A stretch of DNA of 59,680 nt, filler included, from 4 parts of 4 records of this genome joined end to end with filler, not necessarily neighbours in it, one strand, 5' to 3'; counted from the first letter of the whole stretch, positions 7,044 through 48,923 are shown. The notes: generated by a model from the sequence alone, not told the origin. A program made the numbers and translations.

Positions 7044-7045
7044 GT

Positions 7046-26287: not shown

Positions 26288-26755
26288 ATGCCACAGGCCT
26301 TACCTAATGCCGATGCGGCGCGCGCGATCTGCGCGCAACACGGGAATGCCGCTTCGGAGCTGCTTGAAATCCTGCATGATGTGCAGGACAGCCTCGGCCA
26401 TGTCGCGCCGGACTGCCTTCCCGTCATTGCTGACAGTCTGAACCTCTCCAAGGCGGAGGTTCATGGCGTTGTCAGCTTCTATCATGATTTCAAAACAGAA
26501 CCGGATGGCCGGGTGGTCGTCAAGATCTGCCAGGCGGAAGCCTGCCGGTCGATGGGCGCGGTTGCCCTGACCGAGCAGATCCTGTCACGCTATGGCGTGT
26601 CATTGTCCGAGAAAACCGCCGCCGGTGTGGTGTTCGAGCCCGTTTATTGTCTCGGAAATTGCGCATTGGCCCCGGCCGCGATGGTCGGTGGGGCGTTGCT
26701 TGGCCGGGTGCGCGGCGCGGATGTGGATGACGCTCTTGAGGAGGCCGCGCGATGA
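26288..26755 (+). CDS. fdsG: NAD-dependent formate dehydrogenase gamma subunit (NuoE-like, 2Fe-2S)
   Basis: LLEILHDVQ..GHV, LNLSKAEVHGVVSFYHDF, CQAEAC, CLGNCALAP. Confidence 0.92.
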   Translation: MPQALPNADAARAICAQHGNAASELLEILHDVQDSLGHVAPDCLPVIADSLNLSKAEVHGVVSFYHDFKTEPDGRVVVKICQAEACRSMGAVALTEQILSRYGVSLSEKTAAGVVFEPVYCLGNCALAPAAMVGGALLGRVRGADVDDALEEAAR

Positions 26756-27630
26756 GCGTGAAGCTCTTCATTCCGGACGATGCGGCAGCCCTTTCGGTCG
26801 GTGCGGACAAGGTCGTCGGGGCGCTCGCAAAAGAAGCAGAGCGGCTTGGTATTGATTTGCATATCGTCCGCAACGGCTCGCGCGGCATGCTCTGGCTGGA
26901 GCCGCTGGTGGAGTGGGACGGGCCGGACGGGCGGATGGCTTTCGGGCCGGTGCACCCGGGCGATGCGGCCGCGTTGCTTGCAGCTATTCTTGGTGATGGC
27001 AGGCATCCTCTGGCGCTGGGGCCGACGGAAGAGATTCCCTACCTGAAACATCAGGAACGCCTGACACTTGCCCGGGGCGGCCTGATCGATCCCCATTCCC
27101 TTGCCGATTACAGCACGGTGCAGGGCGAGCAGCGTACCGTCGCACTGCCGGACGGCTCGATGGTCTATCTCAATACCGATACGGCCATCGCGGTGGTTTA
27201 TGGCGATGACGAGCGCTGGGTCGAGTTGCTGCGCGGCGAAGCCCTGTTCCAGGTTGCCTCCAACCCGGACCGGCCTTTCCGGGTGATCGCCGAAGGTGGC
27301 ATGACCGAAGCGGTCGGCACGGCTTTTGTTATTCGCGAAGATCCTGTGGATACCGTTGTGACGGTGACGGAGGGCGTCGTCGAAGTACGCTCGCCTCTTG
27401 GCGGGGCTGGTCCGGAGGCTTCTGTCCGGGCAGAGCGCGGGCAGCAGACCCGGTACCGGACGGATGCGCCGCCGGGTGTATGGTGTGAATGCCCGGATCG
27501 AGGCTTGCTCGCGCGGGATTCCGCAGATCATCGTCGATGGGGCCGTGGACGAAACACTTATATAGCGTGGCTGCGCCCTGCTAGTTCACTGTCTTTGGCG
27601 CGGCTGTATCCCTGCCGGCTGCGCCGGTGA
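26752..27630 (+). pseudogene. Chimera: N-terminal ~120 aa of formate dehydrogenase beta subunit FdsB fused in frame to an internal FecR domain, ending in a run-on tail
   Basis: FdsB-like IPDDAAALSVGAD, RNGSRGMLWLEPLVE, QERLT.AR.G.IDP.SLADY, then FecR-like GEQRTVALPDGS.VYLNTDT, L.RGEALFQVA.NPDRPFRV, AVGTAF, VTEGVVEV. No NuoF NADH/FMN or 4Fe-4S domain. Confidence 0.85.
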
Positions 27631-28807
27631 ATTTATCCAGCCATTCCCCCAGTGTTTGATCGGATAGCTGAGTGTCTCCGGGCAGGTCACCGTCTGGCGC
27701 TGTGGTGGCTCCGGATTGGACCGGAGCATTTGCCGGGGTCGTTTGTTGTGGTGCCGCCGGTGTGCCGGGGGGCGTCATGCTGTCTTTCTGTATCGCGGCG
27801 CCGGAGGCCGTCAGGGGCGCCGGTCCGGCAAGGGATGGTGAGCCCATCAGATCGCTGCGCGGGCCAAGCGGGTTGCCCTCCGGGTTTGCCGCGTTTTTAT
27901 TGGTCGCGTCGCTCCCCTTCATGGCCGGATCGGTATTCAGGATGATCGGCAGGCCGTCTGCGCCGCCGATCACAATGACCTTGGCATTGTTGGACTGAGC
28001 GAGTTGCAGCGTCGCCTCGATACCGCGCCAGCGCAGATAGCTCTCGGTGATGCCGGGCGCGACGATTTCCTGGAAGCTGCGGATGCCTTCGGCCTCGATT
28101 CTCTTGCGCTGGCGTTCCTTCTCTTCCAGCCGCAGGCGGAAGTCATAGGCCTCGCTCATATGGCGGACCCGTTCCTTCTGTTCGATCGCGTTGCGCACGA
28201 AGGCCGGCAGTCCGATTTCCTCGATCAGCACGTCCTCGAGATAGATGTAGGCTTCGTCGAACGGGACGTTCGAGGAGATGTTCGCCAGCTTGCTCTGGAA
28301 CAGGGTCTGCACGATGGTCTGCACCTGCTCGCGGCGTGTCGAGTACAGGTCGGATGCCTCATTCTCGGAAATATAGGTGAGGATCAGGGTGCGCAGTTGC
28401 GGGCGCATCAGGGTCTCGGAATAATTCGGCCCGATGCTCTTGTGCAGGAAGCCCACATACGGGCTGTTGATGACGTACCGGCTGGAGATGTTGAGGGTGA
28501 TTTCCAGGCCGTCGACGCTCAAGCCCTTCACGCTCTCGTCGATACGTTGCAGGCGCGCGTCGTACATGTAGATCTTGTCCCAGGGAAGGATGAAGTGAAT
28601 GCCTTCCTCGAGCTGGCTCCCCTTTTCGGTCACGGTGCCGCCAAAGAAACGATACCACATCACGCCAACGGACCCCGGCGGTACGGTGTAGACGATCAGC
28701 GGCCACAGCACGATGATCATGAGCAGCAGGATAGCGCCGGTGGCAAAAAACTCGACCCAGTGCTGGTTCGTCCAGCTCGACGCCTGTTTGAAGAAGCGAC
28801 TAATCAT
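27581..28807 (-). CDS. SPFH/prohibitin (band 7) membrane protein with a ~110-aa P/A/T-rich tail
   Basis: N-terminal TM, V..G.VGV....FGG, EGIHFILPW, S.DGL.I.L..S, I.LP...AIEQK, coiled coil RKRIEAEG, YLRWRGIEAT..LA.S.NAKVIVIG. Confidence 0.9.
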   Translation of the reverse strand: MISRFFKQASSWTNQHWVEFFATGAILLLMIIVLWPLIVYTVPPGSVGVMWYRFFGGTVTEKGSQLEEGIHFILPWDKIYMYDARLQRIDESVKGLSVDGLEITLNISSRYVINSPYVGFLHKSIGPNYSETLMRPQLRTLILTYISENEASDLYSTRREQVQTIVQTLFQSKLANISSNVPFDEAYIYLEDVLIEEIGLPAFVRNAIEQKERVRHMSEAYDFRLRLEEKERQRKRIEAEGIRSFQEIVAPGITESYLRWRGIEATLQLAQSNNAKVIVIGGADGLPIILNTDPAMKGSDATNKNAANPEGNPLGPRSDLMGSPSLAGPAPLTASGAAIQKDSMTPPGTPAAPQQTTPANAPVQSGATTAPDGDLPGDTQLSDQTLGEWLDKFTGAAGRDTAAPKTVN

Positions 28808-30518
28808 GGAACAGCTCCGGGTCGTAGGCCGCCATCATGCCGTCTTCCATATGCATCTGCCTGTCGGCGGCATCGAAGAAGCGGTTGTCATGGGTGACGG
28901 CGATAATAGTGGCTCCGCGTGATCGCAGCATGCCCAAAATTTCGCGATAGAATTTGCGCCGGAACATCGGGTCCTGGTCGGCGGCCCACTCGTCCAGCAC
29001 CAAAACCGGCCGTTTCTCCAGGGCTGCCGCCAGAAGGGCAAGGCGCTTGCGCTGGCCGGTGGAGAGGTCGGTGGTCGAAAACCGGCGGCCGTTAAACTGC
29101 ACCTTGTTGTTAATCTCCAGCGTGTCGATCCAGTCGGGGGCATCTTCCAGAGCCTCGTCCGAAACGCTATAAAGCTCTGAGAACAGGTGGAAATCGCCGA
29201 ACACGGTGGAGAATATCTCGCGATAATCCTGCAGGGCTGTCTTGGGCAGGGCTTTGCCATCCACCAACAGCGTGCCTTCTTGCAGGGGATAGAGCCCGGT
29301 CAGCACGCGCAACAGGGTGGACTTGCCGGAACCGTTGCCACCGGTGATGAACAGAACCTCGCCGCGGGTGACCGTAAGATCGATCGGGCCGACGGTGAAG
29401 GACTCGCTGGGGGCACCGTTCGGCGGGCTGTAGCGGAACACGGCCCTGCGCAGCTCAATGGTCTTGAAGTTGGCGTAGCGCGTGCTGTCCGACACCGGGG
29501 CATCGGAGAGCGGATGGCCGTCTTCATCGACAGCAAGCTCAACTCCGGACAACCGCTTCAGGTGGCGTTCCAGATCCATGATCGCCTCGGAAGCGGCCGA
29601 GGCGTTTTCGAAGATCGGGATTGAGCCGATCAGACCTGAGATCGGCCCGATGATGAACAGCACGGCGGTGGTCGATTTCTGAACCTCGTCGGAATAGCCG
29701 GAGGTCAGGAGCGGGACCACGAAGACCATTGTGCCGAGCAGCAGGTAGAAAGCGGTCTGGGAGAACACGAAGTTTTTGGCCAGCATGATCTGGGTCACGC
29801 CGCGCATCTCCGAGGCGCGCTGGCTGATCTCCTCGATCCGGGAGACGATGGCCCGGGCCTTGCCCCGGCTTAGCTTTGCTTCCTTGAAGCCGTCCAGCAG
29901 GTCGTCGATCGTGGTGTAGACGTCGTTATCCATCTCCAACGTGCCGCGCAGGTCACTGCGCACCGAGTAGGATTTTCGCCAATAGACGAACAGCGCGACA
30001 CTCATGAAGGCGACCAGCGCGATGAAGGACGTGATCGATATCCAGGCGATATAGAGCGTCGTGAACAGGATCAGGATCGACATCTGCACGGCGATGGTCA
30101 CGGTCGAGGCGGATTGCGACAATGTCTGCATGTGGCGGGCGATGCCGCTATAGATTACCGCCCGGCCAAGCTGCTCGACATCGAGCAGCTCGCAATGCTG
30201 CAGATGATTGACGATGCGCATGCGCACCCGATGGATCATCGCCTCCACCTGTTCGGCGGCCTGGGTCAGGATCCAGCGCTGGGCAACGACATAGAGCAAC
30301 ATCGCCGCAGCAAAGAATATGGCGTAGAGCGGCCGGGATTCCGACTGCTCCGCATGTTCGGCGGCGGTATTGATGATCGCCAGAATCATGGCGTTGGTCA
30401 GGCCGGCGACAGCGGCCACGGTCAATGCCTTGCGCGGCGATAGCGTGGCTTCGCGGCGCAGGAACTTAATCAGGCCGTTAGACGCAACCAGATCGGCAGC
30501 GGCGGAACCGGTCTTCAT
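28800..30518 (-). CDS. Cyclic peptide export ABC transporter (SyrD/PvdE/YojI family), fused TMD-NBD
   Basis: LLDGFKEAKL, VGPIDLT, GGNGSGKST, LTGLY, LSTGQRKRLAL and the family-diagnostic DEWAADQDP.FRRKFY. Confidence 0.95.
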   Translation of the reverse strand: MKTGSAAADLVASNGLIKFLRREATLSPRKALTVAAVAGLTNAMILAIINTAAEHAEQSESRPLYAIFFAAAMLLYVVAQRWILTQAAEQVEAMIHRVRMRIVNHLQHCELLDVEQLGRAVIYSGIARHMQTLSQSASTVTIAVQMSILILFTTLYIAWISITSFIALVAFMSVALFVYWRKSYSVRSDLRGTLEMDNDVYTTIDDLLDGFKEAKLSRGKARAIVSRIEEISQRASEMRGVTQIMLAKNFVFSQTAFYLLLGTMVFVVPLLTSGYSDEVQKSTTAVLFIIGPISGLIGSIPIFENASAASEAIMDLERHLKRLSGVELAVDEDGHPLSDAPVSDSTRYANFKTIELRRAVFRYSPPNGAPSESFTVGPIDLTVTRGEVLFITGGNGSGKSTLLRVLTGLYPLQEGTLLVDGKALPKTALQDYREIFSTVFGDFHLFSELYSVSDEALEDAPDWIDTLEINNKVQFNGRRFSTTDLSTGQRKRLALLAAALEKRPVLVLDEWAADQDPMFRRKFYREILGMLRSRGATIIAVTHDNRFFDAADRQMHMEDGMMAAYDPELFHD

Positions 30519-30542
30519 CGCGGAAATCCCTCCCGGGGCGGG

Positions 30543-30737
30543 TTAGCCTTCAGCAGAAGAGCCGGATGAAGTGGTCTTGGGAAACGGCCGCACCAGGGCC
30601 AGGACCAGCCCGACCAGAAGCGGCGTGAGGATCACGCAACACAGAAAAACCCCGAACCCGCCGATCCGGGTGTGCCGTCCGACAAAAGCCAGGATCAGAG
30701 AGAGCAGTATATAGAGGCCGAGCGGGATAAATTGCAT
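30543..30737 (-). CDS. 64-aa two-TM membrane protein
   Basis: TM-GRHTRIGGFG-TM-LTPLLVG pattern, in strand with its neighbours. Confidence 0.7.
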   Translation of the reverse strand: MQFIPLGLYILLSLILAFVGRHTRIGGFGVFLCCVILTPLLVGLVLALVRPFPKTTSSGSSAEG

Positions 30738-30834
30738 GGGCGCGATCCGTTATGAGCGTCTCTGCGGCGTAACAACCGACCGGAGCATGTCTGGCCCGGT
30801 CGGTTGTCCGAAGTTTTTCAGCCACGCTGGGCGA

Positions 30835-31329
30835 TCAGGCAGCGGCCTTCTTCGTTTCGGACGGCTCGTCCGATGCTTTCGAAACGCCTTCCTCGAAATC
30901 GGACTTGAAATGATCGCGGATAGAGTCCGGATCGAGATTCATGACGTTGCCGCCGGCTTCGAAATGCCGGATGAAGACCTTGCCGACTGCATAGGTAGAG
31001 GCTGTGGTGAAGACCGGGGAGGTCAACGCGCCAAGCACGGTTCCGACACCCGGAATAGCTTTGATCAGGCTGGAGGCACCGCGTGCGACCCCGGCCGGCA
31101 CCAGACTGCCCAGGAGGCTGGCGATGATCGTTTTCACGACATTACGCGAGAACGGCACTTCGTAGAGTTTCGCCAGATCGGCGACCATCTTGACCTGAAC
31201 CAGGGTAACCGCTGCCAGATCGGCAAACGGAAGCGGGATGAAACTGGCTCCGGCGGACCAGCCCATATAGGTGTTTACGATGCTCGTGGCTTCGATGCGC
31301 CGAGCAGCCAATACATCATCTTCTTCCAT
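30835..31329 (-). CDS. DUF697/YcjF-like protein
   Basis: IPLPFADLAAVTLVQVKMVADLAKLYEVPF, SLIKAIPGVGT, ASTYAVGKVF..HFE.GG. GGAG RBS before ATG 31329. Confidence 0.88.
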   Translation of the reverse strand: MEEDDVLAARRIEATSIVNTYMGWSAGASFIPLPFADLAAVTLVQVKMVADLAKLYEVPFSRNVVKTIIASLLGSLVPAGVARGASSLIKAIPGVGTVLGALTSPVFTTASTYAVGKVFIRHFEAGGNVMNLDPDSIRDHFKSDFEEGVSKASDEPSETKKAAA

Positions 31330-31474
31330 CAATTTTCTCCAGACTGGGTGAAGCACTGTTTCACAAAATGCTGCGTGGCCAAGCGGTCTCCCAAGGGTAT
31401 TCCGCGTCCGGCCGCTCGAAGGTCTTTGTCAATCATTTCAAGCATATCTGAATCAACCTCCCGTGTACAACGGA

Positions 31475-33496
31475 TCAGAAACTTTTAGCGATTCTCAGTT
31501 GCGGCAGGATGAAACTTTCCTCGCCTCCCGCGCCAATCGAGGCTGCAACCCGTAATTCCGCCCGAAGCCCGCCGGTCGCGAGATAGCGCAGGCCTCCCGT
31601 CAGGTTAAAGAGATCCTGTGCCGCCGCGCGGGAATCGGCATGGATGGTCTGGCCGGATGACAACCTTCCGTCGATTTTGCGTTCCGCGTCGAGCAGGTCG
31701 CGTTCGTATCCGACGCCGAGATAGGGTTGCAGGATGTCGTTCGCGCTGTCGACATCCGTCCAGACGGTGAAATCCACACCGGCCTTCACTTCGGCGACAT
31801 CGCTGTCATCAACTGTCAGGTTAAGAAAGCTCGCGCCACTCTCCGTAAAACCGTCGAGAGTGGTCCAGCCAGCGCCGAGGCGTCCGGTGGCAGCATAGCC
31901 AATACGGCGCTGGCCGATTTCGACATCATTGTCCCAGCGCGCTTCCAACTCGGCGTTGGCGCCCCAGCCGCTGGTGTCGCTGCGTGCTGTCGGCATGACC
32001 GAGAAACCCGTGTCGCGCTTCACGTCATCGACCGTGTGATAGGACAGGCCCGCCTGCAATCCGAGGCTGAAGGCCCCGCTGCGCCAGCCGCCGAAGCCGC
32101 CGACCGTCACCGCATTGTTGTCGAAGGAACCGCCTCCGTTGATTGAGGAGTCCATGGTGGCGTAGCTGAGATGGGCTCCGAAGACGATATCCTTGGTGGT
32201 TTCGGCGGGCCGGTAGGCGACGCCGGCAATCGCCATCTGGCTGTCATAGTCGTAGCCGGAAAAATCCCCGTCCTTGTCCCGGCTGCCGACACCATTCTCG
32301 GCGATGACGAAAACCGTGCTGTTGCCGAATTCCTGACTGCTGATCGGAGCCGTTCCGGCGCCCGCGAAGCCCGGCCCGCCGTGCAGATCGTGGATCTGCC
32401 CGCGCAGGGCGGACATCACCGCGCGCTGCTGCTCGAGGCCTGAATCGGCAAGGGCCGCAAGCCGGCCGCCATCGGCATCGACGGCTTGCAGCGTTGCCGT
32501 CACCAGTTCGGCGATATAGCCGTGGGCCGCTGTCGTCGGGTGCTGGCCATCCCAATAGAGCGTGGCCGCCTCGCTCGCGGCGTCGGGGCATTGGCCGTTT
32601 GCCACATCGTTGGTGATGCAGGAGCCTGTGGTGTTGGTGAAACCATAGAGGCCCGGCCGCACATCGATATCGTCATAGAGCGAATCGAGATCCACCAAGA
32701 TGATCTCAAGGCCGGTATTCGCCCGGGCGTTGGCCAGCATGGCCAGCATGCCGGCATTGTGCGCGGCCGACAGCTGTCCGGATTGCGCGAGTTGCTCCGC
32801 GTTGAAAGCCGATATCAGGGTGGGCACCCGGTCGAGATCGAACAGGTTGAGCACGATCGCCCGCCGGGCACCGAGAGCCGAGGCTTTTTCCAGACCTGTC
32901 TGGATGTTGGCGAGCGTCTGGTCGACGATGCCTTGCTCGCTGACGCCCGGATTGGCGCCGAGAACATAGTTCGTATAGTCGTTGCCGCCGGTCAGGATGG
33001 CGAAGGTGGCGCCGGAGGTGTTGGCGACGACTCCGGAGGCATTATAGGCGGTCAGGTCATCCATGACGGTGAGCAGCCCGGGAGCACTCGGTAACTCTTC
33101 CGTGCCGGCCTTCGCACCCCCGAAGGCGAAACTGAGACTGACGCCTTCCTGGGCGCCTGGGTCGGTTGTCGAGCCGCAGAGACCTGACAGTCCGTTGGAG
33201 GCGTTTTCCGAGACGCAGTCCGGATTGCTGAAATAATAATCCATGTAATAGAGCTGCGTCGGCGCCATCTGGTCGGTCCAGTTCGGGCCGTTCGAAAAGC
33301 GCCCCTGATAATAGGGGGGGCTTAATGGGACCACGTTCGACGGCTGAACCAGTTTGGTGGCGATAAAGCTGTTCTGGTTGTCCACCAGACTGTCGCCAAG
33401 GAAAATATACCGGTCATCGGCCGAAGCCGGTGCGGAAAAACCGAGAAGTGCGCCATATATGGTTGTGGCGAAAAGTGCGCGAAATGATTGGGCCAT
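31475..33496 (-). CDS. SGNH/GDSL esterase autotransporter (EstA/ApeE-like)
   Basis: Signal peptide ending ASA, blocks GDSL, GRFSNG, FAFGGA, GGNDY, DGQHPT, then a ~300-aa beta-barrel ending in F. Confidence 0.93.
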   Translation of the reverse strand: MAQSFRALFATTIYGALLGFSAPASADDRYIFLGDSLVDNQNSFIATKLVQPSNVVPLSPPYYQGRFSNGPNWTDQMAPTQLYYMDYYFSNPDCVSENASNGLSGLCGSTTDPGAQEGVSLSFAFGGAKAGTEELPSAPGLLTVMDDLTAYNASGVVANTSGATFAILTGGNDYTNYVLGANPGVSEQGIVDQTLANIQTGLEKASALGARRAIVLNLFDLDRVPTLISAFNAEQLAQSGQLSAAHNAGMLAMLANARANTGLEIILVDLDSLYDDIDVRPGLYGFTNTTGSCITNDVANGQCPDAASEAATLYWDGQHPTTAAHGYIAELVTATLQAVDADGGRLAALADSGLEQQRAVMSALRGQIHDLHGGPGFAGAGTAPISSQEFGNSTVFVIAENGVGSRDKDGDFSGYDYDSQMAIAGVAYRPAETTKDIVFGAHLSYATMDSSINGGGSFDNNAVTVGGFGGWRSGAFSLGLQAGLSYHTVDDVKRDTGFSVMPTARSDTSGWGANAELEARWDNDVEIGQRRIGYAATGRLGAGWTTLDGFTESGASFLNLTVDDSDVAEVKAGVDFTVWTDVDSANDILQPYLGVGYERDLLDAERKIDGRLSSGQTIHADSRAAAQDLFNLTGGLRYLATGGLRAELRVAASIGAGGEESFILPQLRIAKSF

Positions 33497-33512
33497 GACG
33501 CCTGTCCTCCGC

Positions 33513-34799
33513 TTAGAACGTTACGACGACGGAAATCGTCGCCGAGGTTTCGCTATACTGGACATTGGCCAGGAAAGCATCGTTCACGAGCTGGTTCGAC
33601 GCGGAGGCATTGAGCATCAGCTCGACACGGTCGTGGACTTGCCATGCCGCGGTCGCATCCAGTGTGTAGCTTTTCGCCGTGTAGGGTGTGCCCTCGATCT
33701 CGTAATAGCGCAGGGTCGGGCCGACTTTGAGATAGACATTGTCCGCCGGCCGGTAGAGTGCGGCGACCCCGGCAAGATTGGTGAACAGACCGCCTGACGT
33801 CTCGATATTCGTTTCGTCGAACGTGCGCTGCAAAACGCCGCCAATGCCCCAGGTATCGTCGATCTTGTAAGAGAGCTGGGCCGTACCGACACCGGAGACG
33901 ACTTCGCCGATGGTCGGCGCGTTGAAATATTGCGCGAAGCCGATGACGCGGATCAGGCCGGACAGATTGCCATGGCTGAACTCGGCACCGATACCGACAC
34001 GGCCGCCTTCGGAATCACGATCCTCGGGCAGAAGGAAATCGGAGCCTGAATATTTGATCCGGATCGGGCCGCCGAAGATGGAGGCTTTACCCCAGCTGTA
34101 ATGCTGTCCGGCTTCGAGCGTGAGATTGTATTCCTCGCGATCCTGGGACTGCAGCCGGCTGACGACGGTTACATCGATATCGGTGTCGTTGGAGACATCC
34201 TGATAGCGGCTCAAAAGATTGACGAAATAGGTTTTGTTATCCCATCCGAGCGCGGCTTCCAGCGTGTCGGTCTGGGTTGTCCCGTTCAGGTTCCCGTTAA
34301 ACTGCTGCGGATCGTTCTTGCCGATAATGCTGGTTTCGCTGAGAGCGCCAAGCCGCAGGTTGAGCGTGTCGGTAAAGTCGTAGCGTCCGCTGATCGTGCC
34401 GGAGAGGGCCCGGCTTTTCTGGTCGGAAACGTCGAGGGCTGCCTGGTCAACATAACTGACGGTGGCCGCCAATGCGTGCTCTTCCCAATCCGACTGGGCT
34501 GCCGCGTTGATGGCGAGAAGCCTTCTGAGATCTGATTCTTCGGACGGGTCGAGGCGGATATTGTCCGTGGCCGTAAGGCCGGCCTGAATACGGTTGTAGA
34601 ATTTGAAACCGCCGAAGCTAAGGCCGGATGGTTGCTCGAAGCCGGGAGTGGGCGGGAGTGGCGCTATTTGCGCCATTGCGGGCGTCGCGGCGGCAATAGC
34701 TGCCAACAGGACGGTCAGTGATGCTGCCACTGTCCGACATGCCCGCAGCAACGATTGTTTGCGCGTAGTCCCGGCTGGCTTTGATGCTTTGACTTTCAT
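33513..34799 (-). CDS. Outer-membrane beta-barrel protein (BBP2/DUF2320-like)
   Basis: Signal segment ending AMA-Q, G..FGGF.F......G...TDNI, SDWEEHAL, alternating strands, terminal F. AAGGGGG before ATG 34799; start uncertain. Confidence 0.78.
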   Translation of the reverse strand: MKVKASKPAGTTRKQSLLRACRTVAASLTVLLAAIAAATPAMAQIAPLPPTPGFEQPSGLSFGGFKFYNRIQAGLTATDNIRLDPSEESDLRRLLAINAAAQSDWEEHALAATVSYVDQAALDVSDQKSRALSGTISGRYDFTDTLNLRLGALSETSIIGKNDPQQFNGNLNGTTQTDTLEAALGWDNKTYFVNLLSRYQDVSNDTDIDVTVVSRLQSQDREEYNLTLEAGQHYSWGKASIFGGPIRIKYSGSDFLLPEDRDSEGGRVGIGAEFSHGNLSGLIRVIGFAQYFNAPTIGEVVSGVGTAQLSYKIDDTWGIGGVLQRTFDETNIETSGGLFTNLAGVAALYRPADNVYLKVGPTLRYYEIEGTPYTAKSYTLDATAAWQVHDRVELMLNASASNQLVNDAFLANVQYSETSATISVVVTF

Positions 34800-34855
34800 A
34801 TCCCCCTTAACCGCCAATGCACCCATTTTCCCCGAGATGCAGCGCGGTCCCCCTG

Positions 34856-35566
34856 TTAGTTTTGCTTTGTTTTTGCAGCCTGTTGGGCCAGGTCGGCCAT
34901 CCGGGCCGGTATGGTTCCAAAGCGTGTTGTGGTGATGACATTGCGGCAGTCGAGCCCATTTTCGAATGCGCAATATGGAACGTTGATCGTTGCCTGCAGA
35001 TTGTCGCAGCTTTTCAGAAAGAGAGGCGAAGCGAGGGCATCGGTTTCCTCGCCGTCATCCAATGGTCCGGCCATGATGCTTGTTGCCGAACGGCCATCGT
35101 CGACTTTCGATGTGAATTCGATTTCAGCCACGATGCGGAAAACACCGAGGTTGGTCAGATTTCGTACCGTGATGACCGGGATGCAATTGTCAATCAAGCT
35201 GTGTCCGCTCCGGTCGGTTGAGATGGCGCGGGAGATGACGATTTGCAGCAGGCCGCCGCGGCTTCTGCTGTATTGCCAGCGAAGCTCGGGCTGATCTGTG
35301 ACCGGGTTGATCGTACGCGTAAGCGTGACGGATCGGCCATGGTCGCTTATCGCGGTCACTTTGTCTGCGTTGTGGAAGTCGTCTATTTTCCAGGTTCCGT
35401 TCGGCAGCAGGATTACCCGTTCGCCAACGGTCGTGGCGCCGAGGCCAGAAGGCGGTATGGTTTCGCCCTCATCAGGAGGAGGGGCTGTTGTCTGGGCATC
35501 AGCCTGGTGAGCCAGCACCGATAACAGGATCGCGGTCGCGACCAGGAAAACCCGGGAAAATTTCAT
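34856..35566 (-). CDS. Secreted hypothetical protein (DUF3157-like N-terminal motif, four Cys)
   Basis: Signal peptide ending ADA-Q, motif GERVILLPNGTW, four cysteines in the C-terminal half. Overlaps the thioesterase stop by 4 nt. Confidence 0.7.
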   Translation of the reverse strand: MKFSRVFLVATAILLSVLAHQADAQTTAPPPDEGETIPPSGLGATTVGERVILLPNGTWKIDDFHNADKVTAISDHGRSVTLTRTINPVTDQPELRWQYSRSRGGLLQIVISRAISTDRSGHSLIDNCIPVITVRNLTNLGVFRIVAEIEFTSKVDDGRSATSIMAGPLDDGEETDALASPLFLKSCDNLQATINVPYCAFENGLDCRNVITTTRFGTIPARMADLAQQAAKTKQN

Positions 35567-36444
35567 ACTTTGCTCCCGCCCGCGCGGCGTACGGATGATG
35601 TCCCCGCGAGGCTTGCCGATGATATCACAGCGCGGATCTGATGGAACGCAGCGCTTGGGTTTTCATTGATGAAAAAGTGACCGCCATCAATCCGCATCAC
35701 CTCGTGTTTCGCCTCGGTTCGTTCGGCCCATGCCGTGTCCCGGCCATTGGCGGTGGCGGCGTCGGTCGTGCCGGCGATTGTGTGAATGGGGCAGCGCACC
35801 CGCTCGCTTTCGGCCCTGGCATAGAGATCATTCGCCCGGAAATCGGCCCGCATGACGGGCAGCATCAGTTCCACGAATTCGGGAACTTCATCCATCTCCG
35901 GCGGCAAGCCGCCGAGACGCCGGACATAGTCCAGGAAAGCATCGTCATCCAGATCGGCGACAGTCGGCTGGGGGGCTGTCTGCGGGGCCGCGCGGGCCAT
36001 GGTGACAAGGCCCGCGATGTCGATGCCATCGGCTTCCAGCCGCAGGGCTGTTTCAAAGGCAAGCAAGGCGCCATAGCTATAGCCGAGCAGGACAGGGCGG
36101 TCCCAGTCTTCCGCGGCGATTGAGGCGGCGATGTTTCTGGAGATCGCCGCCGCATCCTCTTCAGGCGTTTCTCCGAAACGTTCCTCCCGGCCCGGCAACT
36201 GGACCGGGACAATACGGATGCCGGGCAGGGAGTCTGCCCATTCGCGGAAAAAACCTGCCCCCGCTCCGGCTGGGGGAAAGCAGATCAGCACTGTGCCGGG
36301 ACCCGTCCCCGCCCCCGCCCCGGCCCGGCGCTGCGCTGGAAGCCAGGGGGTCGGCGCGGCCATGGGCCGCCGGGCGTCCGGCATGGCTCCCCCGGCTATC
36401 GAGGCCGGAGTTGTCTGTCTCGTGATCGTTGATTCCGGAGCCAT
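35563..36444 (-). CDS. Type II thioesterase (NRPS editing)
   Basis: LICFPPAGAGA, VQLPGREER, GYSYG nucleophile elbow, LPVMRADF, GGHFF. ATG 36444 overlaps the MbtH stop (TGATG). Confidence 0.93.
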   Translation of the reverse strand: MAPESTITRQTTPASIAGGAMPDARRPMAAPTPWLPAQRRAGAGAGTGPGTVLICFPPAGAGAGFFREWADSLPGIRIVPVQLPGREERFGETPEEDAAAISRNIAASIAAEDWDRPVLLGYSYGALLAFETALRLEADGIDIAGLVTMARAAPQTAPQPTVADLDDDAFLDYVRRLGGLPPEMDEVPEFVELMLPVMRADFRANDLYARAESERVRCPIHTIAGTTDAATANGRDTAWAERTEAKHEVMRIDGGHFFINENPSAAFHQIRAVISSASLAGTSSVRRAGGSKV

Positions 36445-36659
36445 CAGGCCCGAACGCTTTTCGGCCGCATGTCGGTCCATGTCGTCTCGACATGGGCGAG
36501 GCAGTCCTCGTGCGTCCCTTCAAAGACGGGTTTCCAGCCGTTCGGGACCGTCTTTGCCGCTGGCCAGAGGCAATATTGTTCTTCGTGGTTGACCAGAACC
36601 TGATGCGTCGCCGTCGGGGCTTCGGTCTGGCCGTGAGCTGTCTCTGAATCGGTGCTCAT
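36444..36659 (-). CDS. mbtH: MbtH family NRPS adenylation-domain partner
   Basis: VLVNHEEQYCLWP...VPNGW...CLAHVETTWTDMRPKS. Confidence 0.96.
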   Translation of the reverse strand: MSTDSETAHGQTEAPTATHQVLVNHEEQYCLWPAAKTVPNGWKPVFEGTHEDCLAHVETTWTDMRPKSVRA

Positions 36660-37211
36660 GTCGTTCTCGTCTGCTTGTGAGGAGTGGAACGCGGCTTTTT
36701 TGCCGGCGCTGATTTCAGGGGCTTTGCTGCCGGTTCACGCACGGTTTCGGCGCTCGCATGGTCTGGTGCTTTATCTGCGCTTTCAGGCAGAAGCCCCAAC
36801 CGGCGTTCCCGGAGCTCCAGCATCTCGACCGTAGATTTATAGGTCGGGTGTGCCCAGAGCGCGAAGAGCGCGAATTTCAGAAGTGCGGCGGCGACTGGCA
36901 TCACAATACCGTAACGATAATTGGCGTATCTCGATCTGACACATGAAAGCGCTATACTCGCGCTATGCGATCCGGTCCCGAAAGTGAGTTTCATCGACAG
37001 CATCGGCACTATGGGATGGCGGGAAGGCGTTTGCAAACGATAAATTATTTGTTCACAATGGGTTCTGAGTATATCAGTCATATTTTTTCTGTGTGAAAAT
37101 GTGCCGGGTTGCAAGAAATTTAGCGAATTTTTATGCGTGATTTTCAAGGGGTGATTTCGTGTTTTGGTTTAGTTCCTTGCGTGCCCTCGGAGATTGAATG
37201 TGAGTGGCGTT

Positions 37212-38657
37212 ATGATTGAGAATATTCAATCTGGGCAGTGTTTTTTTTCGCTCTCCATGGCGCAACTGGAGGTTTGGCGGGAGCATGTTTTGTTTCCTGG
37301 TACGGCAGTTCATACCGTATCGGCGCGAAGTATTATTACCGGGTCACTCGATCCTGAAAAATTCGGGGCCGCGCTTTTCTCTATCTGGCAGCGGCATCAG
37401 GCGCTGCGGCTGACACCCGTACCGGGCGAGGATGGGGGAGAGCCGATGCAGGTGGAGTGCCCCGCGCCGGACCGGATGTTCGATCTGCATGATGTATCGG
37501 ATAGTTGTAACCCGGAAGGGGCTGCCGAATCTCTTGCCGCCGATCTAGGGCGCCAGGCCATTCCGCTCGACGGTGGGCCGACTTTCCGTTTCAACCTGAT
37601 TCGCTTCGCGCCGGACCGGCATATTTGGGTAATGAGTTACCACCACATCAACATGGATGCCTGGGCGAACGGCATCTTGATGCGGGATGTCGCGGCAGCT
37701 TATTGCGCGTTGGTCAGCGGCCAGCAGCCGGAGCTGCCGGAAGCACCGCAATTCGGGGAGGCTGTCGAAAGCGACCAGGCCTTCCTTGAAAGCAAACGTT
37801 ACGCCAAGGCTGCCGATTACTGGAGCGGGCAATACAGAACCCTGCCCGACCGGCTGGTCGATGCGGTGCCGAGCGTGCTGGAAGGCCGTCCGCCAGAACC
37901 GACTTCGTTGCAGCGGATCGGTGTCGACGCGGCGACAATGACAAAACTGCGTGCTGTGGCTGCCGAAAAGGGCGCGACACCGGCACGGCTCTTCATGGCC
38001 GCCGCGCTGATCCTGTTTCACAAGCTCTCCGGCGCGACCGACATGGTCTTTGGCATGCCGGTGCTGAATCGGCCGACTGCGCGGGACAAGGAAACCTTCG
38101 GCCTGTTCTCGCTGACCACCGCGCCGCGTATCCAGCTCGATCCGGCCGATGATCTGGATGCCCTGCTGGCCGAACTCGACCGCTCCATGCGCGGGGCCAT
38201 GCGGCACCATCGCTATCCGCTCTCCGGCGTCAATCGCACCCTCGGTCTGGCGGTACAGCGGGTGCTGCAACTCTTTGACATCAATATTTCATATGAGCGG
38301 GTCGATTTCGGTGAGCTGCCGTTCGGCAATGCCGTGGCGGGTGTGCCCCGGGTGCTGCTGAACGGTGTCGAGCGCACACCGGTCGAGATCTTCGTTCGGG
38401 AATATGGCGACGGTGAGCGGGTCGAGGTTGACCTCGATCTTTCGCTCGGCGCTTTCAGTGAGGAAGACGCCGCTTTATTGGCCACGCGTTATTTACGTGT
38501 TTTGTCGTGGTTGGCATCTGGCGGTGCAGGTTCGGTTTCGTCTGTTCCGCTGGTTGATGCATCGGAGCGTGCGTGGCTTCTGGACGGCGTGAACGCGACG
38601 GCACGTGATTACGGCGGGTTCGAGCCTGTGCACCGGGCGTTTGAACGTCTGGCGGAG
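37212..38657 (+). CDS. Non-ribosomal peptide synthetase, 5' part: N-terminal (starter-type) condensation domain and beginning of the first A domain; truncated by contig edge
   Basis: LSMAQLEVW (C1), RHQALR (C2), YHHINMDAWA (C3), GMPVLNR, AMRHHRYP, then linker PLVDASERAWLL..VNAT and VHRAFE. Start uncertain (37194-37212). Confidence 0.93.
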
Positions 38658-38757
38658 NNNNNNNNNNNNNNNNNNNNNNNNNNNNNNNNNNNNNNNNNNN
38701 NTTAATTAATTAANNNNNNNNNNNNNNNNNNNNNNNNNNNNNNNNNNNNNNNNNNNN
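38658..38757. other. Artificial contig spacer
   Basis: 44 N + TTAATTAATTAA + 44 N. Confidence 0.98.
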
Positions 38758-39437
38758 AGTCCAGATAGGTCGACATCCTCGGTACAGGGCACAACCAGGA
38801 ATCCGAGGGTGTTGCGCTCACCACCCTGGAGCTTGGGATCCGTTGGGGAGGTGGCGAAGGCCTTGCCTAGGGCATTGGCTCCAACCACGGGGGCGGTATT
38901 GAGATTGCACAGGCCAACGACCTCCGCCTGATAGGGGATGAGGGGGGCCACGGTACCCTGTAGGGTCTTCATCAGCACCTCACCGCTAGATGCCACCACC
39001 TGGCCTTCCCTGAGCAAGCTCTCCATCAATCCCTTAAATCGGTGGAAGGTACGAGGGGGGCGCATATTCTGGGATAGTCGGATGGTCTTTCCCTTTACGG
39101 TCGACATGATGATGAGGAGGTTTCCATCGTGGTATAGGTCCGAGTCGCATAGTGCTAGGAGGCACTGGTGAACAATGTCGGGGCGGATATCAGCCAAACT
39201 GTCGTTTGCAAGCTGTGTGGAGGCTGCCTTCTCATGGGCATCGACAAGGCCATCGCGGCCCAACCACAAACCACACTTCTCCAGGATGACCACAAGCTTA
39301 GGTTTGCTGGGATCGTGGAGGGCACGCTGAACGGGAACGAACTCCTTGCGCTGGAAGTCACGGTGCTGGGGCTGGAACCTACCAGAGCTGGGAGGCATAC
39401 CTCCTTCCCTGGGACGCTTGAATCCTGGCCTATCCAT
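38758..39437 (-). CDS. NEP1: 18S rRNA pseudouridine N1-methyltransferase NEP1/EMG1 (SPOUT), 3' end cut by contig edge
   Basis: LVVILE..L, RPDIVHQCLLAL.DS.L, RPPRTF.RF.GLM.SLL. ATG 39437 follows a T-rich tract. Confidence 0.9.
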
Positions 39438-39564
39438 TATTCTTGTGGGCAAAATAAATGTAAAACCAATAAAAGTAGACATTCAATAAAATCATTTAAA
39501 ATACAATATTTTCAGTGTGATGTGGTACTCATTGTAACTCTCTTTTCTATGTGTATATTGGGAT

Positions 39565-41172
39565 CTAATGGGAGGCACTACTCAGAAGGTCGGCAACCCT
39601 ACGTCGGTATTCCTCTGTAAGACTGCCACCCCGAACCATATCGGCCAACCTCGCAACCATTGCCGACATGCCATCCTCGTCTCGGTCCCGCTTCCCAGCC
39701 GCCCCAGTATTATCTGTAACGACGGGGCATATGGTATCGCGGGCGCCATCGGCTTGGACCTCGAGGAATACCTCTAGGGCGGCTGCGGTTGTCTCCAACG
39801 ATGTGTCATCAAGCTGCACCTGGGCAACCGCCATAAAGTCCTTTAAGGTGGACAGTATGTGGAACCGCAGGGCAGGGTGCTTGTTGAGCACTGCAGGGGA
39901 GCACAGAATGGATAGGAGAGGCATATTACGGGAAGGATCTGATCGAGTGGCTTCATCGCGGAGTAGAGTAGTTACGAATTCGGTGCGGTCACCGGCAACC
40001 AAAGCCCCAGCCAGGACGACTGCTGCATTTGAGCTGAGTGGGGAGCCTATCACGCGAGATAGGGCCAGCAGGATTGAGTCGGTGGCAACAGCAGGGACTG
40101 GCAACGAGAACACACTACCCAGCCGAAGGCGTAGGTTGTGGTCAGATATTTCATCTAGGGCATCAGATAGGTTTTTACGAATCATAGTGGCATCGTCGGC
40201 GCCACTGAAGTGTAGAAGGGATGACCACAACGATGCAGCACGCTCCACACTAAGAGGGTCTGGGCAGCACAGGGACGCAACCATAATAGCCACCAATTCG
40301 TCAGAGGACGATAGGTTGGTCGCAACCCTCAGCGTAGACAACCACCACTTCTGAAACGGGGGTGCATCAGCCGAGCCCTCTTCAACAACAGCAGCGGCAC
40401 AGAAAAAATCGGGAGGGAGGTGGATGCATGCGGTGGTGACGTTTCGTTGGAGATCTGTAGCGGGGTAGAGCACTGAGCTCATGCCTGGGAGCCAGAGCAA
40501 CATGCCCACCACCATGTCTAAGGCACATCCACAGTCGGTGCTTGGAATCTCCCTCATAACACCGCACATAAAACCGAATGCAGCGACAGCATCCACTGGG
40601 GATGATACCCGTCCGAACAGGGCACCCAACCATCCCAGTCGCTGCTCGTCCGATATCTCCTTGAACAGGATGGAGGCCGCTAGCTCTAGCCGTGCCGAGA
40701 CGGTATTGAACAGTTTTCTAGATGCATCATTCTCCGATAGGTGTACACCGTGTAACGAAGTAGAGTAGTAAACATCGAGCATACTACTGCCGCCCAATGA
40801 AAAGGCATGCAGAGGGTGCACCTTGGCCACTGTAAGCGTGTGAGCGATGCAGAAGTGGGCTGTCTGGACCTTGCGGGGATCCTTCCAATCGTGTGAGTTA
40901 CACGAGCGCTCTACATTGCTCAACAAAAACGAAAATAGCTCCCCGAACAGGGGCGAGAGGACAGCAGAGGCCGAGGATGCAAGGGCCAGTATCCCCTTGT
41001 AACCCCTATTCAGGGCAGGAGGGTCCTCTAGACGGCTAGCCATCGACTTGAGGCGGGAAGCCAGTACACCAGCATTACGAACGATAACATCGGGTTCCAA
41101 CGAATCAAAGGCGGCATCATCACCATCTGCACAGCGCATAACCATCGATTCCTGTGAAGGGGCCGACTGCAT
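39565..41172 (-). CDS. Hypothetical alpha-helical protein (~535 aa)
   Basis: Long intronless ORF in the array, Leu/Ala-rich. ATG 41172 chosen because it follows a T-rich tract and AG. Confidence 0.7.
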   Translation of the reverse strand: MQSAPSQESMVMRCADGDDAAFDSLEPDVIVRNAGVLASRLKSMASRLEDPPALNRGYKGILALASSASAVLSPLFGELFSFLLSNVERSCNSHDWKDPRKVQTAHFCIAHTLTVAKVHPLHAFSLGGSSMLDVYYSTSLHGVHLSENDASRKLFNTVSARLELAASILFKEISDEQRLGWLGALFGRVSSPVDAVAAFGFMCGVMREIPSTDCGCALDMVVGMLLWLPGMSSVLYPATDLQRNVTTACIHLPPDFFCAAAVVEEGSADAPPFQKWWLSTLRVATNLSSSDELVAIMVASLCCPDPLSVERAASLWSSLLHFSGADDATMIRKNLSDALDEISDHNLRLRLGSVFSLPVPAVATDSILLALSRVIGSPLSSNAAVVLAGALVAGDRTEFVTTLLRDEATRSDPSRNMPLLSILCSPAVLNKHPALRFHILSTLKDFMAVAQVQLDDTSLETTAAALEVFLEVQADGARDTICPVVTDNTGAAGKRDRDEDGMSAMVARLADMVRGGSLTEEYRRRVADLLSSASH

Positions 41173-41271
41173 GCTTAACCTTGAAAGGAGGAGATTGAAA
41201 ATATTAATTTTCATGGAAGTAATCCAAACGAATATCAAAATGGGGGCATAAAAATTGAAAGTGTACAGTAT

Positions 41272-41841: not shown

Positions 41842-41987
41842 TAAGCCTTAAAGTAAAAGAATGAAAACACAGTACGAAATATTGAATCAGTAACAACAAC
41901 ACAACATTAAATTGAAGGGGTTGTCTAACTAGGTACAGTATCTAGTGTAAATGGTGTATATTGCGGCTCTATCTATTTGCCAATTGT

Positions 41988-42716: not shown

Positions 42717-42820
42717 GGTAAGACTTTTCGTAAAATAATTTAAATAACCTCATTTACAACATTCCAAACCAACCAACAACGATACTATTACGGTGTGTAC
42801 AATACAAATACAAGCGCACA

Positions 42821-43978: not shown

Positions 43979-44077
43979 ATAACTTGAGAAAAATGGAGCA
44001 AAAATAGAAGTTCCAAGCCAGACGCATTCAAATCAAAACAGGCATGGAATCATTAAAATAGAAATACTACAATGTTA

Positions 44078-46090: not shown

Positions 46091-46190
46091 TATCTAAGAA
46101 TGGAAATGTGTAACAAGTGGGATATACAACAACAATTTTAGCACATCAAAGTTAAAGGGGGATTAATATTTGACTTAGGCACAATTATTC

Positions 46191-48840: not shown

Positions 48841-48923
48841 TTAAACCTTATGACTTAGAGGGAAAGAGAATTTGCACGGATACAATACGAGCTTACAATT
48901 ATCAAAGGCAGAACAATAAAACT

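Follow-up and report, generated by a model that had tools for sequence, protein, structure and literature searches.

Organization of the locus

The window, a stretch of 59,680 nucleotides, consists of four contigs joined by N44-TTAATTAATTAA-N44 spacers, and its host is a marine Nisaea-like alphaproteobacterium. The block of interest runs to position 38657, where its contig ends and a run of N begins at 38658. As an earlier note on this DNA had described, nine same-strand genes diverge here from a nonribosomal peptide synthetase (NRPS) gene, and the corresponding minus-strand open reading frames (27581..36659) are all present. The features of the region are as follows.

27100..27556, plus strand: remnant of a neighbouring ferric-siderophore uptake operon, in which an internal fecR piece is joined to the 3′-terminal part of an ABC ATPase gene (tblastn, and blastn against contig L001)
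27581..28807, minus strand: prohibitin-like SPFH protein, 408 aa (Pfam Band_7, 72.8 bits against a threshold of 23.6)
28800..30518, minus strand: ABC exporter with fused TMD and NBD, 572 aa, cyclic-peptide-export subfamily (TIGR01194)
30543..30737, minus strand: 64-aa two-helix membrane protein (two hydrophobic segments; conserved G-R-x3-G ... L-(T/S)-P motif)
30835..31356, minus strand: DUF697 membrane protein, 173 aa from a GTG start (PF05128, 65.9 bits)
31475..33496, minus strand: type Va autotransporter, 673 aa, with a GDSL/SGNH esterase passenger fused to its barrel (PF00657 at 30-332, PF03797 at 401-648)
33513..34799, minus strand: BBP2_2 beta-barrel of the outer membrane, 428 aa, starting with a signal peptide and ending in Phe (PF10082, 91.5 bits against a threshold of 23.7)
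34856..35566, minus strand: secreted protein, 236 aa, with four Cys (open reading frame and signal peptide)
35563..36444, minus strand: stand-alone type II thioesterase (TE), 293 aa from the coupled ATG (PF00975, 135 bits)
36444..36659, minus strand: MbtH-like protein, 71 aa (PF03621, 67 bits)
36660..37193: intergenic region from which mbtH and the NRPS gene diverge
37194..38657, plus strand: 5′ end of the NRPS gene, truncated where the contig ends, with a putative starter-type condensation domain (PF00668, 198 bits)

The family names proposed for the nine genes are upheld by Pfam and NCBIfam searches, in which the secreted protein and the 64-aa protein have no family match. The four junctions described before are likewise read from the sequence as claimed. 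The mbtH and TE genes meet in TGATG, the TE and secreted-protein genes share a 4-nt overlap (ATGA), the barrel and autotransporter genes are separated by a 16-nt gap containing GGAGGA, and the start of the SPFH gene lies over the stop of the ABC gene in an 8-nt overlap, ATGATTAG. The most likely starts of the TE and the barrel are at 36444 (not 36480) and 34799, respectively, and for the DUF697 protein the orthologues point to a start some 9-10 codons downstream of the GTG. RNA-library contigs from four runs of three studies overlap parts of all nine genes and span the ABC, 64-aa and DUF697 genes (30216-31422), the secreted-protein/TE junction (35484-35813) and the TE/mbtH junction (36350-36640), although such libraries can contain DNA and a single transcript is not provable in this way. 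A minus-strand sigma-70-like site with 10 of 12 matches is located at 37097-37068 in the intergenic region.

The synthetase and its predicted product

The NRPS in the window amounts to a 488-aa condensation (C) domain at the N-terminus of its gene. The best solved matches of the domain are 7c1h, 7c1k and 7c1p (E 1e-38), followed by the C domain of PvdL (3e-33), with the next match at 3e-23. With 7c1h and its relatives being presumably the RzmA lipoinitiation domain, the C domain appears closest to lipoinitiating starter-type domains. In the complete relative G001, two NRPS genes, ending in a TE, together encode six C domains, and a TauD-type hydroxylase and a B12/radical-SAM C-methyltransferase come after them. 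By analogy with this architecture, which is taken from relatives, the product is probably an N-acylated, tailored hexapeptide.

The inner-membrane proteins

The SPFH protein has the Band_7 domain and N-terminal membrane anchor of the SPFH/prohibitin family, with a single transmembrane segment (residues 21-39), and its tail of about 120 aa is rich in Pro, Ala and Thr. Among solved structures, those of prohibitin-2 and prohibitin-1 are nearest to it (E 5e-11). The ABC protein has five hydrophobic segments (residues 31 to 303) ahead of the nucleotide-binding domain (ABC_tran at 378-512), the arrangement of a fused exporter. It scores 327.8 bits with TIGR01194, above the cut-off of 286.2, and 332 bits with PRK10522/YojI, under the cut-off of 604 for that model, and its adjacency to NRPS genes makes it a predicted non-ribosomal peptide exporter. 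It resembles the PvdE/SyrD/YojI proteins of TIGR01194 in its fused organization, its score above the family cut-off and its location in an NRPS cluster, the first C domain of which is likewise PvdL-like. In contrast to these, the SPFH-linked ABC proteins reach only about 290-350 bits, and the best-scoring members in the class sample (470-640 bits) are not found beside SPFH genes. No known TIGR01194 member with prohibitin-like, DUF697 or ParA-like partners was found in the literature. Look-alikes of the 64-aa protein are encoded between or beside the DUF697, ABC and SPFH genes in nine loci (L005, L033, L034, L035, L037, L038, L040, L041 and L046), and a scan of the gaps at 11 class-sample loci revealed them in 8. 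We know of no function assigned to bacterial prohibitin-like SPFH proteins or to DUF697, and no functional study of the latter is apparent in the accessible portions of the literature that mentions it.

The outer-envelope proteins

The barrel protein is a PF10082 member and is modelled by AF2 as a closed barrel of 18 strands without a plug (pLDDT 80). Foldseek relates the model to generic large barrels only, namely TonB-dependent receptors, OccK, AlgE and porins, at a TM of about 0.5. The autotransporter has the passenger and C-terminal beta-domain of type Va proteins, together with an N-terminal signal peptide as read from the sequence. Its passenger is closest to the lysophospholipase A PlaA (8a24, E 1.5e-17) and to ChoE, and aligns with PlaA in block I (S36), block III (G171/N172) and block V (D316/H319). 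G34-D35-S36-L37, G170-G171-N172-D173 and D316/H319 are invariant in all six orthologues, and the Ser/Asp/His active-site set is intact. The protein is similar to the GDSL autotransporter esterases of the EstA type and to the lipolytic PlaA/ChoE enzymes in carrying a GDSL passenger with this residue set on a type Va barrel. No GDSL autotransporter tied to an NRPS cluster was found in the literature.

The four cysteines of the secreted protein (C128, C187, C199 and C207) are invariant in both a 14-sequence and an 8-sequence alignment. The AF2 model, with an overall pLDDT of 70 that rises to about 90 at residues 130-210, suggests an Ig-like beta-sandwich in the C-terminal half of the protein, the structural matches of which are generic Ig-like sandwiches (best Z 8.5). 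The family comprises 52 representative clusters at E<=1e-3, and its distant homologues (24-26% identity) retain all four cysteines. These are encoded next to ParA-like ATPase, DUF697, ABC and SPFH genes on contigs without the barrel and autotransporter. The pair of a ParA-like ATPase and a second DUF697 protein is itself found beside the secreted-protein homologue in L053-L056, and on the far side of the NRPS genes in G001 and G005. The barrel and the GDSL autotransporter, on the other hand, are confined to the Nisaea-type cassette and occur in none of the modules outside it, be it in the class-sample regions, on other contigs or in the phylum sample. The proposal that the secreted protein, barrel and esterase constitute one outer unit is thus not borne out by their distribution.

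Conservation and co-occurrence of the cassette

The nine genes are found in the same order in three Nisaea genomes (L002-L004, of which L004 is the cultured Nisaea denitrificans DSM 18348), in two further genomes of the class sample (L033 and L034), in a sixth genome over two contigs (L005 and L011) and in a metagenome contig (L051), with protein identities of 33 to 98% across the recurring cassettes. Synteny in other genomes, on which the earlier note had staked its proposal, therefore exists, and the arrangement is more than chance. The overlap of the ABC and SPFH genes is retained in all full cassettes. The short contigs L050 and L052 carry part of the nine-gene order only.

Of the 401 genomes sampled from the class, 16 have SPFH homologues (E<=1e-20) and 18 have TIGR01194 proteins (E<=1e-40), with both present in 15, the SPFH protein only in 1 and the ABC protein only in 3 (Fisher p = 2e-23 over the 401 genomes, a value that ignores relatedness). 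Half of the ABC places (16/32) have an SPFH place at a distance of about 6 kb or less, and the 17 class-sample regions of 20 kb contain a long ABC match in 12 cases, DUF697 in 14 (15 with a second query) and NRPS matches in 10, while no NRPS match is present within 20 kb in the other seven. The phylum sample has the SPFH protein in 21 of 401 genomes. Within 1.5 kb of the 20 new SPFH places from this sample, DUF697 is found at 11 and strong ABC matches at 3, and none of the partners at 5. By sequence comparison, the DUF697, 64-aa, TIGR01194 ABC and SPFH proteins are one conserved set, mostly adjacent and often NRPS-linked, and their earlier grouping into a unit holds to that extent. The inner-membrane module is nevertheless also present on the 21-kb contig L054, which has no NRPS gene, so it may not be tied to NRPS products.

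A model of the cassette and its alternatives

The gene content, coupling, conservation and co-occurrence described above can be accommodated in a model which we consider probable, though by no means assured, where the cassette is an accessory arm of the NRPS cluster organized in three layers. First, MbtH and the type II TE would be the usual NRPS helpers. Next, the DUF697 protein, the 64-aa protein, the TIGR01194 ABC protein and the translationally coupled prohibitin-like SPFH protein would make up an inner-membrane module, to which in the marine lineage the secreted four-Cys beta-sandwich protein and, across the NRPS genes, the ParA-like ATPase and second DUF697 protein would also belong. Finally, the 18-strand plug-less barrel and the surface GDSL esterase would form a lineage-specific outer-membrane pair. 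The ABC dimer would move the acyl-peptide out of the cytoplasm, and the SPFH protein, by analogy with the prohibitin and HflK/C rings, would confine the ABC protein and its small partners to a patch of the membrane, thereby either linking peptide assembly to export or protecting the membrane against the amphiphile. At the cell envelope, the barrel and esterase of the Nisaea-type cassette would act on the product or on outer-membrane lipids. Prohibitin and HflK/C rings enclose membrane proteases. The SPFH protein shares with them the Band_7 domain and N-terminal anchor, and prohibitin-1 and -2 as nearest solved structures, whereas its partner gene encodes an ABC exporter instead of an AAA protease. 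An ABC-prohibitin pair is also reported to adjoin a 95-kb NRPS/PKS cluster in Thalassobaculum sp. OXR-137, a member of the same bacterial family, Thalassobaculaceae (PMC12016528). The accessible part of that paper gives the adjacency only, with the prohibitin said to be one that 'may interact' with the cluster, and contains no mention of DUF697, small TM, secreted, barrel or esterase proteins (PMC12016528).

It is possible, if doubtful, that the product is an acyl-peptide siderophore and that the cassette has its role in iron acquisition, where the esterase and barrel would contribute to release or re-uptake and not to export. In L001 and L051, the closest relatives of the window, a full operon of FecI, FecR, TonB receptor (STN), binding protein, permease and ATPase genes directly follows the SPFH gene, and the window keeps a remnant of it. 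Window positions 27104-27476 and 27470-28000 correspond to L001:11644-11272 and L001:5507-4977, respectively, which means that about 5.76 kb found in L001 and L051 is missing from the window. The TauD-type hydroxylase that follows the NRPS genes in G001, G005 and G334 would also suit a siderophore. However, no TonB-receptor plug domain is encoded near the cluster in G001, G002, G143 or G190, the barrel model has no plug, and the mbtH-NRPS intergenic region contains no convincing Fur box (best consensus match 12/19).

The barrel and autotransporter might instead have an unrelated envelope role, such as lipid scavenging or that of a general porin, and merely ride in the island, which we regard as unlikely. 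Their absence from all modules outside the Nisaea-type cassette suggests that they may be passengers, and the esterase resembles (lyso)phospholipases and not peptide-modifying enzymes. Nevertheless, in all full cassettes the two genes are located between those for the NRPS helpers and those of the exporter module, the ribosome-binding site in the short gap links one to the other, and 15 of 32 barrel-family entries have a longest contig of the same length as that of an SPFH-family entry, one such pair being from Endothiovibrio diazotrophicus, although equal length is a proxy only for location on one contig.

The earlier note itself had viewed the nine genes as a self-contained route across two membranes that replaces a membrane-fusion protein (MFP) and TolC, where the ABC, SPFH, small TM and DUF697 proteins accomplish inner-membrane export and the secreted protein, barrel and esterase outer passage and maturation. 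As a whole, this proposal now appears rather improbable. MFP and outer-membrane efflux (OEP) families are indeed not matched by profile search in the nine-gene block, nor among the 20 open reading frames on the far side of the NRPS genes in G001, where a dedicated MFP-TolC pair would have counted against the proposal. In 17 genomes the 10 kb on either side of the SPFH gene contain no OEP gene (the nearest being 14, 15 and 25 kb away in G334, G362 and G190), and in five no HlyD-type (HlyD_D23) gene, with the nearest HlyD_D23 match in G001 about 195 kb away. The modelled barrel is of a size with the OccK or AlgE channels, and the barrel, autotransporter and secreted-protein genes remain in the same order in L011, L033 and L034, where identities are 33-47%. 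The absence of MFP and TolC thus stands for the cluster but not for the cell, as OEP/TolC-family genes are present elsewhere in all 17 genomes checked and HlyD-type genes in all five, so that TolC-independent export is not established and the outer-membrane step may use TolC-family proteins encoded elsewhere. Many known NRPS products do use TolC systems encoded away from their clusters, which counts against a self-contained route. The MacAB/RND-TolC tripartite exporters of NRPS products, such as PvdRT-OpmQ, PseABC and those of the MacAB type, perform the task the note had in mind, peptide passage over the outer membrane, but differ from the present case, where neither the cluster nor its vicinity contains an MFP or OEP gene. 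In addition, the secreted protein accompanies ParA-like and DUF697 genes where the barrel and esterase are absent, and the fold matches of the barrel are silent on the direction of transport.

That the SPFH, DUF697 and ParA-like proteins are a general membrane-organizing or stress system, not a peptide-handling one, that is frequently co-inherited with NRPS islands is quite improbable. The NRPS-free L054 contig and the greater adjacency of SPFH to DUF697 than to ABC in the phylum sample (11 versus 3 strong matches of 20) speak for it, and TIGR01194 exporters in 15 of the 16 SPFH genomes, the ABC/SPFH overlap and the NRPS matches in 10 of 17 regions against it.

An equally speculative extension, which we hold to be improbable, is that the cassette is a relay for lipid-tailed peptides akin to the Lol and Lpt systems and unlike TolC pumps. 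The ABC protein, residing in a prohibitin-like ring positioned by the ParA-like ATPase docked on the DUF697 proteins, would draw the acyl-peptide out of the inner membrane. From there, it would be carried to the 18-strand barrel by the secreted disulfide-bonded beta-sandwich, and then be finished or released by the surface esterase. An ABC protein, a secreted beta-sandwich and a barrel would fit the Lol/Lpt logic of an ABC extractor, a periplasmic beta-rich carrier and an outer-membrane acceptor; however, neither LolA nor LptA is among the 50 listed structural matches of the secreted protein. If true, such a relay would provide a first function for bacterial prohibitins, DUF697 and the orphan secreted family.

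Returning to the three-layer model, no mechanism for such an ABC-SPFH-DUF697-small TM module was found in the literature, and sequence comparison depicts the inner-membrane set as widely conserved but unstudied, and the putative outer-membrane channel and surface esterase as lineage-specific. Gene order and co-occurrence connect SPFH proteins and DUF697 with an NRPS exporter as a defined cargo system, and with the full cassette present in the cultured and non-pathogenic N. denitrificans DSM 18348 their role becomes testable. The module could explain how makers of membrane-active acyl-peptides organize export or protect their own membranes, and the outer-membrane pair offers a way to ask if some Gram-negative bacteria export lipopeptides without TolC.

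Make-up of the window and its nine-gene block

The 59,680-base window, with its three N44-TTAATTAATTAA-N44 spacers (11352-11451, 38658-38757 and 54533-54632), is not a single molecule and consists of four contigs (1-11351, 11452-38657, 38758-54532 and 54633-59680). The second contig, with a GC content of about 0.6, is of bacterial origin and carries the nine-gene block at its right end. The third and fourth contigs hold eukaryote-type genes (EMG1, EF-hand, PH domain, acyl-CoA oxidase, Spt5, CCT-type chaperonin, dynein heavy chain, DnaJ and DEAD-box helicase), which marks the source as an assembly of mixed eukaryotic and bacterial origin. Near-identical copies of window 27581-37580 are found in 19 run rows from 13 studies among the matches listed, protist and algae metagenomes included, and the cassette-bearing bacterium seems often to accompany microbial eukaryotes, whether cultured or sampled.

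The nine minus-strand genes are all present and their products are as the earlier note had described them.

Genes of the nine-gene block (window 27581-36659)
minus strand, MbtH
minus strand, stand-alone thioesterase
minus strand, secreted protein of 236 aa with a signal peptide and four Cys, without family
minus strand, BBP2_2 barrel
minus strand, GDSL esterase-autotransporter domain fusion
30835-31356, minus strand, DUF697 protein
minus strand, 64-aa two-helix protein
minus strand, ABC exporter, TIGR01194 (327.8 bits, cut-off 286.2)
minus strand, Band_7/SPFH protein

The junctions likewise agree exactly with the earlier description: mbtH and the thioesterase gene meet at TGATG, the thioesterase and secreted-protein genes at ATGA, the barrel and autotransporter genes are separated by 16 nt that contain GGAGGA, and the ABC and SPFH genes overlap by 8 nt. 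No convincing terminator emerged between the nine genes in a consensus scan (10 terminator-like sites versus 8.3 expected), the sole minus-strand site of the block falling inside the coding region of the 64-aa protein. Contigs from four RNA libraries in three studies cover parts of all nine genes and the NRPS 5′ end, bridging the ABC start, the 64-aa protein and DUF697 (30216-31422), the secreted protein and thioesterase (35484-35813), and the thioesterase and mbtH (36350-36640); a single transcript is not provable from such contigs, RNA libraries can also contain DNA, and a stretch without cover does not equal silence. The divergence from an NRPS gene holds for the plus-strand condensation domain, but only 488 aa of NRPS are visible, since the contig ends at 38657 and leaves this domain alone. 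The cluster-wide context was taken from related genomes (G001-G005, G143 and G190). Two features occupy the mbtH-NRPS intergenic region, of which the ORF is probably not a gene.

Features of the mbtH-NRPS intergenic region
36656-37147, minus strand, 163-aa ORF filling the region, without family match
37097-37068, minus strand, sigma-70-like site inside the 163-aa ORF

Conservation of the inner-membrane set

Searching species-representative genomes with the ABC protein yielded five useful loci. Four are labelled Nisaea, among them one at 98% identity, one on a complete chromosome (G001) and one from N. denitrificans DSM 18348, whose cassette is on L004; the fifth, at 63%, is in G005, a MAG labelled 'uncultured Rhizobium sp.'. 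The synteny expected elsewhere is indeed present, as the nine genes and the divergent C domain recur by tblastn in unchanged order at three Nisaea loci (L002, L003 and L004); the G005 cassette is divided over two contigs with the break at the autotransporter gene. Two class-sample genomes (G143 and G190, 38-68% identity) and the metagenome contig L051 also have the full order, and the short contigs L050 and L052 carry part of it. Endothiovibrio diazotrophicus, which we take to lie outside the alphaproteobacteria, is among the named relatives of both the SPFH and the barrel proteins, and the two entries give the same value, 48,446, for the longest contig.

Among 401 genomes from the class of G001, the SPFH protein occurs at 18 places in 16 genomes (E<=1e-20) and TIGR01194 at no fewer than 32 places in 18 genomes (E<=1e-40, three candidates scored per genome). 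Both are present in 15 genomes, SPFH only in one and the ABC only in three (Fisher p = 2e-23, uncorrected for relatedness). An SPFH place lies within about 6 kb of 16 of the 32 ABC places, and the transporters that score highest with TIGR01194 (470-640 bits) have no SPFH link. Of the 17 regions of 20 kb compared, 12 contain a long ABC match, 14 contain DUF697 (15 with a second DUF697 query) and 10 contain NRPS matches; SPFH stands alone on L048, a 6-kb contig, and on L049. A small two-helix protein with the pattern G-R-x3-G ... L-(T/S)-P adjoins the set at 8 of 11 gap-scanned class-sample loci, and no look-alike was found by the gap scan in L036, L042 and L043. In a phylum-level sample the SPFH protein is present in 21 of 401 genomes; within 1.5 kb of 20 new SPFH places, DUF697 was found at 11, a long ABC match, a weak NBD-only match and a small-TM look-alike at three each, and none of these at five.

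Among solved structures, mitochondrial prohibitin-2 and -1 are closest to the SPFH protein. The DUF697 protein shows a weak match to positions 303-371 of 470, in the C-terminal part, of the NCBIfam slr1306 family model; taken with the conserved ParA-like/DUF697b pair, this suggests that DUF697 may dock P-loop NTPases at the membrane. Judged by gene order and co-occurrence, the DUF697 protein, the 64-aa protein, the ABC exporter and the SPFH protein form a conserved unit; the earlier note had grouped these four in a presumed inner-membrane export or self-protection unit.

Secreted protein, barrel and esterase

The proposed unit of secreted protein, barrel and esterase did not hold up, as a distant homologue of the secreted protein occurs without the barrel and autotransporter on the marine contig L054. 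Its family is small, with 19 proteins in a word-indexed search and 52 representative clusters in a profile search (E<=1e-3). Distant members on four marine contigs (L053-L056) are 24-26% identical and keep all four Cys and an R-N pair, and the gene order there is secreted protein, ParA-like ATPase, DUF697. On L054 the series continues on one strand with a ligand-gated-channel-like gene, two more DUF697 genes, a small TM gene, ABC and SPFH, and no NRPS, barrel or autotransporter was found in 21 kb. Since homologues stand beside these genes, the secreted protein belongs with the ParA-like/DUF697/ABC/SPFH set. The barrel and GDSL autotransporter were found in the Nisaea-type cassette only, among the loci compared.

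As a separate observation, marine metagenome contigs carry prokaryotic ligand-gated-ion-channel-like genes within the ParA-like/DUF697/ABC/SPFH set or adjoining it.

Ligand-gated-ion-channel-like genes (Neur_chan_LBD, LGIC_1)
L054:11216-12445, plus strand
L054:18346-19191, minus strand
L055:9279-10268
L056:10323-11312

The secreted protein is modelled as an Ig-like sandwich (pLDDT 70, about 90 in the C-terminal half). Foldseek gave no fold neighbours at E<=0.001, and in a VIA-wide fold search the best Z, 8.5 against IrmA, ApaG and GH2 Ig-like domains, is no higher than the background given for that search. Assignment to DUF3157, an atlas lead (score 0.93, 15% of cluster members), was not confirmed: eight family members had no Pfam match at E<=5. 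The barrel model has 18 strands and no plug (pLDDT 80) and matches generic large barrels only in Foldseek. The esterase passenger is closest to the lysophospholipase A PlaA and to ChoE, and its catalytic residues are kept in six of six orthologues.

Outer-membrane export components

The lack of MFP and TolC genes in the block was confirmed; in G001, the 20 ORFs on the far side of the NRPS contain none either, and it is there that a dedicated MFP-TolC would have spoken against the proposal. The genomes of the relatives were searched with the profiles PF02321 and PF16576. All 17 genomes examined have OEP genes, but these stay more than 10 kb from the SPFH gene; the distance is shortest in G334 (14 kb), G362 (15 kb) and G190 (about 25 kb). 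The five full-cassette genomes all carry HlyD_D23 genes, and wherever the contigs permit a judgement these lie away from the cassette. The cluster thus stands without MFP or TolC as proposed, but the genomes do not, and their absence from the cluster does not show TolC-independent export; a TolC-free route is unproven.

Product of the NRPS cluster

The cluster of G001 lies at about 2,341,000-2,375,100 of C1, where two neighbouring open frames encode all six condensation domains of the genome. The first is 4240 codons long; the second, of 2381 codons and called as 2336 aa, has a C-terminal thioesterase. These are followed by a TauD-family dioxygenase and a 655-aa radical-SAM protein scoring as TIGR03975 (C-methyltransferase). 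The far side of the cluster, in the opposite orientation, encodes a ParA-like ATPase and another DUF697 protein; the far side in G005 matches that of G001 and also includes a PPTase. The B12/radical-SAM protein and the dioxygenase directly follow the NRPS genes in G001, G005 and G334, a combination of tailoring enzymes that is unusual in NRPS clusters.

B12/radical-SAM proteins (655-688 aa), scoring as TIGR03975 (RiPP-type C-methyltransferase) at 494 bits
L009:598-2565, minus strand
L013:5845-7911, minus strand
L036:11929-13815, minus strand

The solved chains best matching the C domain of the window are 7c1h, 7c1k and 7c1p (E 1e-38), presumably the RzmA lipoinitiation domain, followed by the PvdL C domain (3e-33) and the next at 3e-23. 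Because these are its closest matches, the product is likely an N-acylated peptide, which fits the 'lipopeptide' of the earlier note.

A siderophore is hinted at by the neighbouring DNA. In the closest relatives of the window, L001 and L051, a complete uptake operon (ECF sigma, FecR, TonB receptor with STN domain, binding protein, permease and ATPase) directly follows the SPFH gene on the opposite strand, and the window retains a remnant of it.

Remnant of the uptake operon
26752-27630 (especially 27100-27556), plus strand, mosaic ORF, internal FecR piece joined to an ABC ATPase 3′ end

The mosaic ORF lies after a formate dehydrogenase gamma gene (26288-26755); its first approximately 116 residues have no family match, residues 117-242 correspond to an internal part of FecR, and the final stretch matches an ABC ATPase at its C-terminus. 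About 5.76 kb comprising the TonB receptor, binding protein, permease and most of the ATPase is missing compared to L001 and L051, through either a strain deletion or an assembly artefact. Against a siderophore, no TonB-receptor plug was found near the cluster in G001, G002, G143 and G190, and the mbtH-NRPS intergenic region has no good Fur box (best 12/19); the scan of the bacterial contig, best 13/19 overall, is not informative.

Relation to described systems

In PMC12016528, a cyclic peptide export ABC gene followed by a prohibitin family gene is placed beside an NRPS/PKS cluster of Thalassobaculum, and the prohibitin is only said to 'may interact' with that cluster. The main text of the kasumigamide paper (PMC5061366) is devoid of the terms band 7, SPFH, prohibitin and ABC transporter. 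Thalassobaculum belongs to the same family as Nisaea. The literature search revealed nothing joining Nisaea with nonribosomal peptides, SPFH with nonribosomal peptide and ABC transporter gene clusters or with siderophore and NRPS, or a GDSL autotransporter with nonribosomal lipopeptides, and no mechanistic description of the cassette.

From the interpretation as a whole, the inner-membrane unit is retained, but the outer trio does not form a unit and TolC-free export is unproven. The cassette is most likely an accessory arm of the NRPS, with a cyclic-peptide-type ABC exporter that would be organised by a scaffold of prohibitin type together with its small membrane partners. The exporter would carry an acyl-peptide, and the outer-membrane channel and esterase would be a lineage-specific addition to this arm.
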